A DNA stretch of 64,000 nt from Escherichia coli (GTDB lineage Bacteria > Pseudomonadota > Gammaproteobacteria > Enterobacterales > Enterobacteriaceae): assembly GCF_001677475.2 (NCBI RefSeq), contig NZ_CP015229.1. One strand, 5' to 3'. The translations under genes were made by a program, and so were the position numbers. Shown in pieces: positions 32,357-58,402 of the stretch. Numbering within the stretch: position 1 is the first letter of the stretch; each line of letters opens with the position of its first letter. The notes under the pieces were generated by a model. That model made no database searches. It was not told the origin of the DNA and was given only the letters and a program-made list of their open reading frames with translations.

Positions 32357-33390
32357 TCAAGCCTTAAGAGGCTTTGTGTATGTTCGTGTAATCCATCCAG
32401 TAATAAACTCGTCCCCTGATTTAACCTGCACGAAAAGCCATTGGCGATCTTTTTTATCTAAAACAGCCACTATAGTATTTTTGCCAATGCATTCAATCAC
32501 CTCACTATTTATAGAAGGACTGACGTGTAATCTTACGTTCTCACCAGTTATAAAACGAAAACCATTGAGATCTTCCCAACTAATTTCTTTGTTTTCTTTA
32601 ATTAATTGTTGTTTTGATATTGGTTTATCCTCAAACAGAGATATAAAATATGATTCTGCCTTGTGTATTCCCAGCAAGGTTTTCTCTTTTCCGTAATCAA
32701 TAAAAGCACCAAACACAACTTGAGAAAATATAACCATTAGTAACCATTGCAGTGGATAAGGAAGCTCTTTAAATGAATCAACAAACTTTGAGCTAGGTTT
32801 ATTTAATCCTTTATTTTGAACATTACTTTTGGTGTGTGATGTTTCAGTAGCACCTTCAGCATAAGCCTGCGCAATAGATGAAATCCCCTGCTCTATTATT
32901 TGATGTAATGAAGCATTTCTTGTTCTAGCATAGTGATCTAGTACTTTCTTTATGTCTTGGCTTACATCTGTTTTATAACTTGCACTTTGTTGTAATTCTT
33001 TAAGTATCGCTTGCATGTTATTTAAACCAGCTTGCTTATTAAGCACCTCAAGCTGTTTTCGTAATGGCATAGCTATTTCGGCCTGTTTCCTTAGCATTTG
33101 AATATATCTATTTGCGTCATGAGGGAAAAGAGCCTGAGTCTGTTTCTGTAAAATCGCGATATGTTCACGATACTTGCTGCCTATTCCAGCCAAGTTCGGC
33201 ATACTAGCCAATTGTTTTCGAAGAGAGTTACTAATTACAGCTTGTCTATTCAATCTTGTCATATTTTGAAAAGAATGTTTTTCTATTCCTAATTGTTTTT
33301 GCAAGATCGCTACGTGATCTTTGTATGATGGAATGAGCACTGACTGTTTATACAGTAACTTCAACTCATTAGAATTAGTAATTTTTGTCA
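32357..33390 (-). CDS. membrane protein with internal repeats and SH3-like C-terminal domain (sim-region)
   Basis: AT-rich; repeats HVAILQKQ / EHIAILQKQ, one TM, C-terminal beta-rich domain; start uncertain. Confidence 0.45.
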
Positions 33391-33465
33391 TATTATTCCA
33401 TTTATATAATAGAATATTACGCAACCAATGTTTTATTGATTGCGTTAATCTTTAACACAGAAAGA

Positions 33466-33942
33466 TCATTTGCCTCGTTTAATACATCCATCCATTTTGG
33501 CTTGTTGATACAACTTACTTAGCCCAGAAAGAGGGAATGTAGCAATTTTTTCATTATCAACATAAGCATCAATCATATTAGCATTTGAATCTGCTGCATC
33601 TTGCCAAAAGGCATACCACCAAGAATCTCCAACCATTGATCCAAGATTGCTAAAAGGATATTGCTCACCATCTATAGTTAATACTATTTTATTCTTGTCA
33701 GCATTATACTCTTTTTTATTATTCGACGAACTTAGCAACAAGCCTAAACTACCTGCACTATCTGGTGAACCATACATGAATCCCATATCACATAAAAAAC
33801 TTATCTTATCACCATTATGATTATGGATTGTATATTCTCTCCCCCCTCTCTCTTCAATTACATTCCATTGTAGAGGATCAATTTTTGCAAATGTTCCTGC
33901 TGAAACTAACGATACAAATAATAAAAACCATCTCATATTCAT
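33466..33942 (-). CDS. secreted protein with signal peptide (sim-region)
   Basis: 158 aa; N-terminus MNMRWFLLFVSLVSAGTFA; AT-rich. Confidence 0.55.
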   Translation of the reverse strand: MNMRWFLLFVSLVSAGTFAKIDPLQWNVIEERGGREYTIHNHNGDKISFLCDMGFMYGSPDSAGSLGLLLSSSNNKKEYNADKNKIVLTIDGEQYPFSNLGSMVGDSWWYAFWQDAADSNANMIDAYVDNEKIATFPLSGLSKLYQQAKMDGCIKRGK

Positions 33943-33964
33943 TCTTTTCGCTTCTTATCTGTAA

Positions 33965-34315
33965 TTATTCTGCAATATCATTTGCCCATTGCACGGCAGC
34001 AAAATGAGTACCCAAACCACTCAGGAAAGCAATTACCCCCAAAACAATACTTGCTGCTGTTGATTCAAACAAAGTACCAATACTATAGCCAATAGCTCCC
34101 CATACTAAGCTAAATACAATCATCAATGGTATTGCCAGAAATTTTATTCTTAAACTAAAAATCAGTCCAAGAAAAGAACCGCCAAAGGCCCACCATGATT
34201 TAGACATTAAACCTATCAGTATTGACAGAATTCCTATTTCAATAAAGAGAATATTAGATTGCTCTTCATTGAATTTCGCATTTGTTACACCTTTACGAAC
34301 ATGTTCAGATGACAT
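33965..34315 (-). CDS. small multi-pass membrane protein (sim-region)
   Basis: 116 aa; AGGAG RBS; 3 hydrophobic segments. Confidence 0.55.
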   Translation of the reverse strand: MSSEHVRKGVTNAKFNEEQSNILFIEIGILSILIGLMSKSWWAFGGSFLGLIFSLRIKFLAIPLMIVFSLVWGAIGYSIGTLFESTAASIVLGVIAFLSGLGTHFAAVQWANDIAE

Positions 34316-34453
34316 GATTAACTATCTCCTGCCACAGATAAAACGCCTTAAAATAACATTTTGTAGCATAAAGTTTCACCATGCAATGGTCAAAATCTTT
34401 GACCCATATCAATTAAACTCATACATTTTAGTTACCAGGGAAATAATTTACAT

Positions 34454-34470
34454 GGTTACAAGTTGCTCTA
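34454..34470. promoter_or_regulatory. C1 repressor operator-like 17-mer upstream of immI
   Basis: GTTGCTCTAATTATTTT versus P1 consensus ATTGCTCTAATAAATTT. Confidence 0.45.
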
Positions 34471-34654
34471 ATTATTTTATTTTTTTAGCTTCATATGCTA
34501 CATTAACTTGCTTGCGTGCTAATGCATTTTCGGTTTATCCTAAACAGGCATCTTAGTAAAATGGATGCCGGGATTGGAACCCCGGATAATGCAAAAGGCG
34601 ACACAGACGCCAAAAGCGTCTTTTTTTGTGTCATGCCATCGCACAGCCATACGT

Positions 34655-34745
34655 AGCACATAGCTCCGAGATCAATGGTAGTGCTGGCTGGGCTGCCGAA
34701 AGGCAGGCCGGTTCCCTTTTGCGCCGGTAGTTCCAACCCAGTCAG
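34655..34745 (+). ncRNA. c4: c4-like antisense regulatory RNA region of immI (boundaries approximate)
   Basis: Segments complementary to GATTGGAACC / CCATTGAG elements present upstream (34571) and at the icd RBS (34754-34770); position between operator and icd. Confidence 0.4.
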
Positions 34746-34812
34746 TGCTACCGCCATTGAGATTGGAACCTCACGCGGTAGCTCCTTAAATTAGCAAAAG
34801 GAGGCTGCCATT

Positions 34813-35034
34813 GTGGCTACTATCCCTACCCCTACTCATCCTGAATTTATCTGGCGCTTTTACTCCTGCCAAAAACACCACTATCACTTCGTTATCGCAG
34901 CAACAGAAGACGAAGCACGCTCTCAATTGCCTGATGGCCCCTGCATTTTTACTGCCCGTTTTTCAACTAACTCGCGCAATTCACTTAGTTACTGGAACCT
35001 CCCCTTCTCTGCCGACGTTCAGGGGGGTTTATGA
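34813..35034 (+). CDS. icd: Icd-like cell-division interference protein
   Basis: 73 aa; GTG start after AAAGGAGG; stop overlaps ant start. Confidence 0.6.
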   Translation: MATIPTPTHPEFIWRFYSCQKHHYHFVIAATEDEARSQLPDGPCIFTARFSTNSRNSLSYWNLPFSADVQGGL

Positions 35035-36074
35035 AAAAACCTCTCGTCACCCGGAATGAAATAGCCGAAGCGATCGCCCTGCATACTGCCTGTATGCCGA
35101 CACGGGAGATCCCCGGCGCAATTGCCAACTATTTCATGATAACCAAGCGTTTTTATACCCGGATAGATAAGGCTGTGATCAACAGGCTACTGATAGCCGA
35201 GATCAGGGATTATTTGATTGAACAAGGACGTCTACGTTACGCAACAGTGGCAGCAGAAATGAGAAAGGAGGCACATAGAATGACCGGTAATAATTTGAAT
35301 GTTGAAAAACCAGCACCTGTTGCTTCAGCTACGCCAGCACCAGCCGTGAATGTCATCCCCAACACCGGAGACACAATCGACAGCCAAACATTGTTGAAGA
35401 TGGTCAATGAGGCACGCAAGTTATGTGGAGAACCATTGGTTAGAAACAATAAATTCATCGAAAAAATACTCGACGAATTAGAAGGTGAGGACGGTTACAC
35501 AAAAAGTGCAACCGTGCCGCCAGGTGGCGGTACGCCTATGGTTGTCATAACCATGACCTACAAACAAGCCCTGCGAGTTGCCGCGCGCGAGTCAAAAGCG
35601 GTCCGCCGTTCGCTGATCGACAAACTGGAAGAATTGCAGCAGGCAAACTCCCCTGCCCCATCGATCCCCCAAACATTACCAGAAGCTCTACGCCTGGCTG
35701 CCGAGTTGGCAGAACAGAAAATGCAGTTGGAACAACAGCTGGTGGCCGCAGCCCCTAAAGTCGATTTTGCCGACCGGGTATCAGTGGCCAATGGAATCCT
35801 GATCGGGAACTTTGCAAAGGTCGTTGGACTTAAGCAAAACGCCCTTTTCTCATGGTTGCGCCAGAGCGGCATTCTCATGGCTTTTGGTGAGCGCAAAAAC
35901 GTACCGCGCCAGCAATACATTAATGCCGGGTATTTCACGGTGAAAGAAGTGGTGCTGGATGATGAAAATGGCTACCAGATACGGCTGACGCCCCAATTAA
36001 CGGGTAAAGGCCAGCAGTGGTTAACTCGCAAGCTACTTGATGCTGGTTTGTTAAAACCAGTAGCAATAGGTTAA
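35031..36074 (+). CDS. ant: antirepressor Ant (KilAC-type C-terminal domain)
   Basis: 347 aa; C-terminal block AAPKVDFADRVSVANGILIGNFAKVVGLKQN; in-frame internal Met for a shorter form. Confidence 0.75.
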   Translation: MKKPLVTRNEIAEAIALHTACMPTREIPGAIANYFMITKRFYTRIDKAVINRLLIAEIRDYLIEQGRLRYATVAAEMRKEAHRMTGNNLNVEKPAPVASATPAPAVNVIPNTGDTIDSQTLLKMVNEARKLCGEPLVRNNKFIEKILDELEGEDGYTKSATVPPGGGTPMVVITMTYKQALRVAARESKAVRRSLIDKLEELQQANSPAPSIPQTLPEALRLAAELAEQKMQLEQQLVAAAPKVDFADRVSVANGILIGNFAKVVGLKQNALFSWLRQSGILMAFGERKNVPRQQYINAGYFTVKEVVLDDENGYQIRLTPQLTGKGQQWLTRKLLDAGLLKPVAIG

Positions 36075-56545: not shown

Positions 56546-56621
56546 GATGGTGTAGCTCAGCGGTTAGAGCGGTTGACTGTTAATCAACGGGTCGATGGTT
56601 CAAATCCATCCACCATCGCCA
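56546..56621 (+). tRNA. tRNA-Asn (anticodon GTT)
   Basis: Cloverleaf folded by hand; anticodon loop CTGTTAA; T-loop GGTTCAAATCC; encoded CCA. Confidence 0.85.
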
Positions 56622-56623
56622 AT

Positions 56624-56699
56624 GCCGGTTTAGCTCAGTTGGTAGAGCGCCTGCCTTGTAAGCAGGATGTCAGCGGTTCGAGTCCGTTAATCGGCACCA
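56624..56699 (+). tRNA. tRNA-Thr (anticodon TGT)
   Basis: Cloverleaf folded by hand; anticodon loop CTTGTAA; T-loop GGTTCGAGTCC; encoded CCA. Confidence 0.85.
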
Positions 56700-58326: not shown

Positions 58327-58402
58327 GGCCCTTTAGCTCAGTGGTTAGAGCTGGCGACTCATAATCGCACGGTCACCGGTTCAAGTCCGGTAGGGGCCAC
58401 CA
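58327..58402 (+). tRNA. tRNA with CAT anticodon (Met or lysidine-dependent Ile)
   Basis: Cloverleaf folded by hand; anticodon loop CTCATAA; T-loop GGTTCAAGTCC; encoded CCA. Confidence 0.8.

Follow-up and report, generated by a model that had tools for sequence, protein, structure and literature searches.

A predicted immI immunity module with a c4 recognition code unlike those of P1 and P7 in a P1-like plasmid prophage of Escherichia coli

The region from 34454 to 35034 of the window (the whole 64-kb stretch of Escherichia coli DNA that was analyzed) holds, all on one strand, a C1-operator-like site, the counterparts of two promoters, a short leader RNA of the IsrK type, a c4-type antisense RNA with complementary sequences on both of its sides, and the gene icd, the end of which overlaps the start of the anti-repressor gene ant1 (Table 1). 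ORFs of the size of kilA and repL follow downstream of ant. This layout corresponds, element for element, to the annotation of P1, the GenBank record of which gives the order Oc4/Op51, P2c4/P51a, P1c4/P51b, “putative” a1 and b1, the 77-nt C4, a2 and b2, icd, ant1, ant2, and kilA, with a2/b2 labeled “repression of icd ant translation.” The roles that we assign to the promoters, the operator, and the a/b elements come from that annotation and from the P1 literature.

Table 1. Features of the locus, with positions in the window
Feature	Position	Strand	Basis or remark
C1-operator-like 17-mer GTTGCTCTAATTATTTT	34462..34478	+	14/17 consensus positions; counterpart of P1 Oc4/Op51
P2c4/P51a promoter counterpart	34476..34504	+	−35 TTTATT 34476-81, −10 TACATT 34499-504; assigned by homology only, weak match to consensus
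P1c4/P51b promoter counterpart	34512..34541	+	−35 TTGCGT 34512-17, 18-nt spacer, −10 TATCCT 34536-41; aligned to P1 annotation
Predicted IsrK / c4-a1b1-type leader RNA, 80 nt	34548..34627	+	Rfam isrK, fold, terminator scan
a1 = TTGGAAC	34574-80	+	Upstream target copy, in leader hairpin loop
b1 = GCAAAAGG	34591-98	+	Upstream target copy, single-stranded in leader
Predicted mature c4 antisense RNA, 79 nt	34677..34755	+	Ends transferred from the annotated 77-nt C4 of P1 (L001:1347-1423)
b' = CCTTTTGC	34715-22	+	Exact complement of b1 and b2
a' = GTTCCAA	34730-36	+	Exact complement of a1 and a2
a2 = TTGGAAC	34763..34769	+	Loop of a small GAG/CUC hairpin (fold); aligns with annotated a2 of P1
GCGGTAGC	34775..34782	+	Inverted repeat, complementary to the 3' strand of the c4 stem (GCTACCGC, 34747-54)
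b2 = GCAAAAGG	34794-801	+	Exact complement of b'; aligns with annotated b2 of P1; overlaps icd Shine-Dalgarno
icd, 73 aa, GTG start	34813..35034	+	NCBIfam phage_ICD_like, E = 2e-14
ant1, 347 aa	35031..36074	+	Pfam ANT/KilAC, E = 3e-30; ATG overlaps icd stop as ATGA

The initial annotation had recognized a C1-operator-like 17-mer at the left of the region, and this site indeed aligns column for column with the annotated operator of P1 (L001:1144-1160 in our locus set). The window contains six such operator-like sites against 0.16 expected, and the one considered here marks the left boundary of a cassette common to the elements JL22 and RCS47. By analogy to P1, C1 would exert its control at this operator. 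Both promoters are weak when measured against the consensus, and a promoter scan did not call the P51b counterpart. From this counterpart, we predict a transcription start near 34548; its −10-like TATCCT, a weak consensus match, lies 6 nt before 34548, which is also position 1 of the isrK model, and the same spacing between the −10 element and the model start recurs in D6, in the locus L017, in Gifsy-1, and in the Stx phage F039.

The central RNA is recovered over its full length by the Rfam C4 model (RF01695), which matches 34671-34758 (model positions 1-87 of 87) with 76.7 bits against a gathering score of 45 and an E value of 3e-13, in agreement with the immI/c4 reading first given to the region. 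At the gathering threshold, Rfam finds only one C4 and one isrK in the window and thus gives no sign of a second c4 locus. The predicted fold (minimum free energy, −46.6 kcal/mol; z, −5.3) has a 16-bp, acceptor-like terminal stem, a GAAA hairpin, a second hairpin bearing b', a single-stranded joint bearing a', and a 3' GCC tail followed by an A; within it, a' remains unpaired and most of b' falls in the loop of hairpin 2. This tRNA-like architecture, in which a long terminal stem encloses two hairpins, is supported by covariation: of the 22 consensus pairs, 12 are changed on both sides and yet still pair when 11 alleles, taken from P1-like phages, Gifsy-1, and an Stx phage, are compared. The stem with the succeeding GCC-A resembles the 3' end of a tRNA, and the modeled form would fit the RNase P processing known for P1. 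The initial annotation held that the ends of the RNA cannot be set from sequence; they can nevertheless be predicted, though not proven, by homology to the mapped C4 of P1, which places them at 34677 and 34755.

The 64-kb window contains exactly two copies of the 10-mer GATTGGAACC (chance expectation, 0.21), at 34572-34581 and 34761-34770, and these are the repeats that had been reported at 34571 and 34762; indeed, all of the elements named by the initial annotation were found, with positions off by no more than 1 nt. Each copy spans an a element and is followed by a copy of GCAAAAGG (b1 and b2). The central segment had likewise been described as complementary to the repeats and to the ribosome-binding region of icd, and the two parts of c4 responsible for this, CCTTTTGC and GTTCCAA, are exact complements. 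When the two flanks were shuffled, none of 20,000 trials placed two complementary runs of 7 nt or more on each side. The downstream target is placed upon the translation initiation region of icd: the Shine-Dalgarno sequence AAGGAGG (34798-804), 8 nt ahead of the GTG at 34813, is overlapped by b2. Hence, c4 presents exposed a' and b' segments that are complementary to a downstream a2/b2 pair, of which b2 falls on the ribosome-binding site of the gene that follows, and a second complementary copy, a1/b1, lies upstream within the same predicted transcript and covaries with a'/b' across alleles. The complementarity is conserved in P1 and P7, as had been asked of it, and coordinated changes preserve it in P1, P7, and at least 10 other alleles. 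A further complement to the c4 stem, at 34775-82, has counterparts of covarying sequence at the same position in D6-type, L017-type, Gifsy-1, and Stx loci, and no perfect run of this kind was found in P1/P7.

The 73-aa icd joins ant in the manner originally described, with the icd stop and the ant ATG sharing ATGA, and a start internal to ant1, at 35280, corresponds to ant2. The ant region is 96% identical in nucleotide sequence to ant1/ant2 of P1. The icd gene itself is a mosaic: its first ~9 codons are D6/JL22-like, and the remainder is P1-like. The antisense RNA, icd, and ant are arranged as one operon downstream of the C1 operator, an arrangement expected of the C4 RNA of P1/P7 immI.

The upstream copy of the targets lies within an RNA of its own, a point beyond the initial annotation. 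Rfam isrK (RF01394) matches 34548-34626 along its entire model (positions 1-77 of 77) with 58.9 bits against a gathering score of 50. This leader comprises a first hairpin, a hairpin with a1 in its loop, a single-stranded b1, and an intrinsic terminator (stem 34605-21 plus a U-run), and this three-hairpin layout is common to the window, D6, JL22, P1, P7, Gifsy-1, and the Stx phage. The defining context of isrK, a Rho-independent terminator with a downstream antirepressor operon, is present in the form of c4, icd, and ant, as judged from the predicted genes and signals. The features of the C4 family and of isrK that can be looked for in sequence are found here, with the promoter of the leader as a weakly matching candidate. 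Rfam also models the upstream a1/b1 of such loci as c4-a1b1 (RF03163; Weinberg et al. 2010, PMC2864571), a member of the C4 clan that matches P1, P7, and Gifsy-1 at the corresponding position. P1 and P7 score above the threshold for c4-a1b1 and below that for isrK at this place; in contrast, the leader in the window has no c4-a1b1 match at the gathering threshold and scores as isrK instead, a family that Rfam keeps outside that clan.

Taken with the layout, these features make it very probable that a P1-like plasmid prophage carries an intact immI immunity module at 34454-35034. The switch itself is known biology: in phages of the P1 type, a small antisense RNA, c4, blocks the production of an anti-repressor, and the P1-type c4/immI module is a textbook case that is caught by a curated RNA family. 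With immI of P1 and P7 (RF01695; Citron & Schuster 1990), the locus has in common the order of parts (operator, two promoters, a1/b1, c4, a2/b2, icd, ant1/2, kilA, repL), the c4 fold, the placement of a' in the 3' joint and of b' in the loop of hairpin 2 with elements of 7 and 8 nt, the position of b2 on the icd ribosome-binding site, and the ATGA overlap of icd and ant.

The RNA cassette itself differs from the P1/P7 allele, which the initial annotation, in calling the locus known P1 biology, had not anticipated; the module type stands, but the cassette is not of P1 or P7 sequence. By megablast, near-identity to P1/P7 (96%) begins only at 34840, within icd. Upstream of this mosaic junction, the stretch 34463-34840, running from the operator to about codon 9 of icd, has no near match in P1/P7, and its nearest relatives are D6 (94%), JL22 (89%), and RCS47 (87%). 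The c4 RNA is 97% identical to that of D6, but its identity to the c4 of P1 and P7 is only 49-51%, and its a/b sequences also differ from theirs: the specificity types of P1 (TTGACAG / TTAGTG) and P7 (TTAGCAG / ATTGTG) are both absent, and the window has TTGGAAC / GCAAAAGG, with an a specificity of its own. What is new in this copy is therefore a recognition code unlike those of both studied phages, and the locus is an uncharacterized specificity within a well-known kind.

The c4-icd cassettes of D6 and JL22/RCS47, which are 87-94% identical to the query 34440-34840 over the aligned stretch, have the same b element, leader, terminator, and 5' end of icd; they differ in a dinucleotide of the a element (GGA in the window, GAG in the others) at all three of its sites. 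In JL22, the cassette follows pacB and precedes a Roi-type protein, off the canonical immI site; in the window, an icd body and ant of the P1 type are fused to it. Across 34548-34812, the window and D6 show 16 differences, 6 of which are this same swap at a1 (34577-78), a' (34732-33), and a2 (34766-67), and another 2 form a compensatory pair in the first leader hairpin. Such coordinated changes at three sites indicate continuing selection. They thereby speak against the reading of the locus as an inactive remnant with decayed promoters and operator and an unmade or irrelevant RNA, which the three operator mismatches and the two weak promoters might suggest and which we consider very improbable, given also that all six a/b sites match perfectly, that icd and ant are intact, and that copies at least 99% identical occur in 26 E. 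coli records.

To place this code among its relatives, we compared 86 regions: 80 icd-linked loci collected from viral contigs, the window, P1, P7, D6, and JL22. A c4 is present in 80 of the 80 loci from viral contigs. The regions carry 17 a/b combinations, 14 of which are matched at all six sites; the remaining three are apparent recombinants with one mismatched site each (L011, L013, and L049). The type in the window is the second most frequent (15 of the 86 regions). We then estimated the pairing of a'+b' with a2+b2 from the short exposed segments, with kinetics, Hfq, and tertiary structure ignored, and on these terms cognate pairs reach −21 to −24 kcal/mol, whereas cross-pairs of the heteroimmune phages P1 and P7 reach −12 to −14 kcal/mol. 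Duplex energies of whole c4 and flanking RNAs were uninformative, with cognate and non-cognate pairs scoring alike because c4's own fold is ignored, and were replaced by the exposed-segment values. The c4 of the window gives only −5.6 and −4.8 kcal/mol on the P1 and P7 targets, respectively; hence, its pairing to them is predicted to be negligible. The strongly diagonal pattern of these energies leads us to predict immI heteroimmunity towards P1 and P7, and, with no predicted recognition of their targets, the window would represent a separate immI immunity type. With D6, the case is different: the c4 of the window scores −14.7 kcal/mol on the D6 target, and the c4 of D6 scores −20.2 kcal/mol on that of the window, against −21.5 for the cognate pair. 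In light of this near-equal pairing and of the b element common to both, heteroimmunity between the window and D6 is doubtful.

Taking these findings together, we propose the following course of events. Transcription would start downstream of the C1 operator, most likely near 34548, as the isrK match, the fold, and the alignment of the P1 promoters suggest, and a leader of ~80 nt would be made first, exposing a1 in a hairpin loop and a single-stranded b1 and ending at the intrinsic terminator. Transcripts that read through would carry c4, and, if the processing of P1 applies, RNase P would cut at 34676/34677 and trimming near 34755 would leave a stable, tRNA-like RNA of ~79 nt. The a' and b' segments of c4 would then base-pair with a2 and b2 within the leader of icd, as the observed complementarity and the mechanism established in P1 imply. 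As b2 overlaps the icd ribosome-binding site, icd would remain untranslated; the anti-repressor Ant would then be absent and C1 repression would hold, because ant expression depends, by homology to P1, on the translation of icd. Specificity is predicted to reside in the a/b sequences, with a as TTGGAAC and b as GCAAAAGG on a D6-type scaffold. We place considerable confidence in this sequence of transcription, c4 production, repression, and specificity as a whole, as far as it can be read from the DNA.

One alternative to the block of translation is that c4 acts mainly like the CI RNA of phage P4, bringing about premature transcription termination through its flanking elements. A terminator does stand directly after a1/b1, and the paper on IsrK calls that RNA a structural homologue of P4 seqA and likens the processed RNA STnc1160 to CI (PMC4825925). 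The P4 system, with CI and the elements seqA/seqB/seqC, also has a processed small RNA between two complementary copies of its target in the control of immunity, but it works, according to the description in the same paper, through premature termination in the replication genes and not through a translational block on an anti-repressor (PMC4825925). The overlap of b2 with the icd Shine-Dalgarno sequence and the translational role given to a2/b2 in the P1 annotation render a mechanism of the P4 kind improbable for immI. In P1, termination reportedly follows from the translational block (Biere et al. 1992).

The closest parallel to the leader is provided by the Salmonella prophage Gifsy-1, where Rfam places an isrK (also above the c4-a1b1 threshold) and then a full C4 (69 bits), and where the antirepressor gene, anrP, comes next. 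Its a1/a'/a2 are ATTGGCGT / ACGCCAA, and its b1/b'/b2 are TCACCG / CGGTGA, with b2 on the ribosome-binding site of the antirepressor gene. The published work describes a 77-nt terminated IsrK with partial read-through and, downstream, an ~80-nt processed RNA, STnc1160, from the region named orf45 (PMC4825925), so that both systems would have a terminated leader followed by a processed RNA. Gifsy-1 differs from the window in its lack of icd, its lambdoid context, and its a/b sequences. In that paper, P1 goes unmentioned, and the c4 region is regarded as an mRNA (“orf45”; PMC4825925). It also reports the compensatory mutants G28A/C162U and G31A/C159U (PMC4825925); counting from L085:34316, our mapping puts G28 and G31 in a1, C159 and C162 in a' of the Rfam C4 match, and “A107” at the AUGG of the c4 5' end. 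Hence, the published genetics tests a1:a' pairing in a homologous module. On this comparison of elements, the IsrK locus of Gifsy-1 is the same module as the immI leader and c4. The “orf45” region therefore appears to be a c4 RNA, inviting a re-reading of that system, and the role of a1/b1, only “putative” targets in the P1 annotation, becomes testable through IsrK experiments. A 2025 review gives IsrK and c4 as separate entries, and our literature search, limited in scope and no proof of absence, found no paper equating IsrK with a1/b1 of P1.

By this analogy, the likeliest role of the upstream RNA is to modulate c4, be it by pairing in cis within the precursor or by serving as a decoy in trans. 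We tentatively entertain the latter: a1/b1 in the free leader may titrate c4 and so lift repression, in the manner of IsrK over-expression in Gifsy-1, where IsrK, which binds Hfq, raises antirepressor translation ~140-fold in trans, an activity reported for Gifsy-1 only (PMC4825925). A simple decoy fits poorly with the report that constitutive STnc1160/orf45 does not counteract the growth arrest by IsrK in Gifsy-1 and makes it stronger (PMC4825925). The other possibility is that a1/b1 acts only in cis, pairing with a'/b' in the unprocessed read-through transcript (“structure A”) and thereby controlling the folding or processing of c4 or holding the leader inactive. The IsrK paper describes a cis helix between mid-IsrK and the region that we map as a', and the cis mutants G28A and G31A raise basal expression (PMC4825925); the covariation of a1/b1 with a'/b' in nearly all loci would be explained equally well, and the P1 annotation goes no further than calling a1/b1 putative. 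Against a purely cis action speak the conserved intrinsic terminator and the sRNA-like, three-hairpin form of the leader, and in Gifsy-1 the free 77-nt IsrK accumulates and acts in trans (PMC4825925). Further, the natural recombinants L011 and L013 have a mismatched a1, and a match at a1 is therefore not strictly required. We accordingly regard a function in cis only as rather unlikely.

If the decoy is retained, the observations might be joined in a single reading, which we offer as a conjecture that is somewhat doubtful in its entirety: the upstream copy would be a terminated, IsrK-type, allele-matched anti-c4 decoy; immI would be a switch of three RNAs (decoy, antisense, and target); IsrK/STnc1160 of Gifsy-1 and a1b1/c4 of P1 would be a single system; and the a/b elements would form a combinatorial code of many mutually blind types, with that of the window heteroimmune to P1/P7.

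A small ORF runs through c4 (34675-34794, 39 codons) and is labeled “ash family protein.” One could suppose that the conserved segment acts at least partly through this ORF, with translation of a leader peptide opening up the start of icd, as has been put forward for orf45 of Gifsy-1. Pfam Phage_ASH matches it with 33 bits against a cutoff of 26, PGAP annotates it, and the frame is open up to the region of the downstream start in the window, P1, Gifsy-1, and the Stx phage; in Gifsy-1, orf45 shares this start, the AUGG at the 5' end of c4; its product was detected with an SPA tag, and its translation is required for the expression of anrP (PMC4825925). No NCBIfam model matched the ORF. Against a coding role, the product has no amino acid similarity to that of orf45, the frame differs in P1, the observed changes are compensatory pairs of the kind expected of an RNA, and the AUG is buried in the 16-bp stem of a highly stable structure; the authors of the IsrK work themselves remark on a conserved nucleotide sequence with a variable amino acid sequence (PMC4825925). 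We therefore think it quite improbable that a leader peptide governs icd even in part, and the “ash family protein” label that genome pipelines set on the c4 RNA gene is probably an annotation artifact. A minus-strand ORF (34503-34757) was also considered as the bearer of this label; it has no Pfam/NCBIfam match, and the annotation refers to the plus-strand ORF through c4.

ImmI has been described as a variable hotspot (Venturini 2019), and c4 homologues in D6-like prophages, as well as two c4-icd regions within one element, were already known; our search of the literature, again limited in scope and no proof of absence, turned up no typing of c4 a/b alleles in P1-like plasmids. Many c4 recognition types besides those of P1 and P7 occur in P1-like plasmid prophages, which are present in ~5% of complete E. 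coli genomes, and typing of the a/b elements would predict coexistence versus exclusion among them. The cassette family of the window was recovered from 302 of 5,426 complete E. coli genomes, nearly always on plasmids, and 339 records of a plasmid collection match the 401-nt query 34440-34840.

The immI locus in the window combines a D6-type cassette with a P1-type icd body, fused at the canonical site, and the same hybrid recurs in the compared c4 loci L005-L013. Pairs of c4-icd loci, one on a P1-type scaffold and the other on a D6/L017-type scaffold, are present in several P1-like contigs (L022 with L057, L024 with L078, L027 with L080, L019 with L083, and L047 with L061). One member of these pairs, L057, has the same a/b type, i.e., the same sequences of the elements setting predicted c4 specificity, as the window and a JL22-like icd. 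The hybrid arrangement in the window looks like the result of an exchange between such paralogous loci with P1-type and D6/L017-type scaffolds. Apparent natural recombinants are also seen in L011, L013, and L049, in each of which one element is no longer complementary to the c4 antisense RNA: in the first two, a1 of the upstream leader belongs to an “a” type other than that of a' (in c4) and a2 (in the icd leader), and in L049 a P1-type b2 accompanies b1 and b' of the CGAATG type. Their breakpoints would fall in the stretch that separates the leader from c4 or in that separating c4 from the icd leader.

The predicted cross-pairing between the window and D6 (L002) is asymmetric, with the D6 c4 pairing with the window target at a predicted -20.2 kcal/mol and the window c4 with the D6 target at -14.7 kcal/mol; if real, this would mean one-way cross-immunity. 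D6 also has a second, sub-threshold C4-like match (L002 1074-1153; 40 bits) about 470 nt upstream of its main c4.

A third complementarity involves GCGGTAGC (window 34775-34782), located between a2 and b2, whose complement is found in the 3' strand of the terminal stem of c4 (34747-34754). In the L017-type, Gifsy-1, and Stx loci, a complement to the c4 stem that differs in sequence occupies the equivalent position, +16 to +18 after c4; the pairing therefore covaries, being retained in place despite the changed sequence. In P1 and P7, the complement to the 3' strand of the stem is only imperfect. In the transcript before processing, pairing of 34775-34782 with 34747-34754 could give rise to an alternative helix.

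In the Salmonella prophage Gifsy-1 (L085), “orf45” coincides with a full match to Rfam C4 (69 bits), and IsrK, encoded before it, also scores above the threshold for Rfam c4-a1b1. The published mutant positions, when mapped on the Gifsy-1 sequence, fall within a1 and a'. The P1 c4 goes unmentioned in the IsrK paper (PMC4825925).

The c4 RNA gene of the window is itself spanned by an ORF whose PGAP label is applied to the c4-spanning ORF in hundreds of plasmids, and which scores 33 bits with Pfam Phage_ASH (PF10554), above the cutoff of 26. It shows no amino acid similarity to its positional counterpart, “orf45” of Gifsy-1, and in P1 the frames across c4 differ from that of the window ORF; thus, the Phage_ASH family may in part be a translation of c4/CI-type RNA genes.

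Features of the window and of Gifsy-1 (L085)
Feature	Position	Strand	Remark
C1-operator-like 17-mer	26851-67	-	
355-aa protein gene	within 32357-34315	-	borderline SH3_3 match
39-codon ORF through c4 RNA gene	34675-34794	+	PGAP label “ash family protein”
C1-operator-like 17-mer	36153-69	+	1 mismatch; upstream of kilA
C1-operator-like 17-mer	51320-36	+	
C1-operator-like 17-mers, overlapping pair	55864-80 / 55875-91	+ / -	opposite strands
tRNA gene	56546-56618	+	
tRNA gene	56624-56696	+	
tRNA gene	58327-58399	+	
Gifsy-1 isrK-“orf45” region	L085 34131-34316	-	Rfam matches

Elsewhere in the window, three different genes (32357-34315, minus strand) stand in place of P1 simABC and P7 upf50.0/50.5; family searches with the 158-aa and 116-aa proteins encoded there gave no matches. 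Besides the C1-operator-like 17-mer of immI, the window has five others, of which the one preceding kilA is placed like P1 Op53. The three tRNA genes are consistent with those of P1-like phages.
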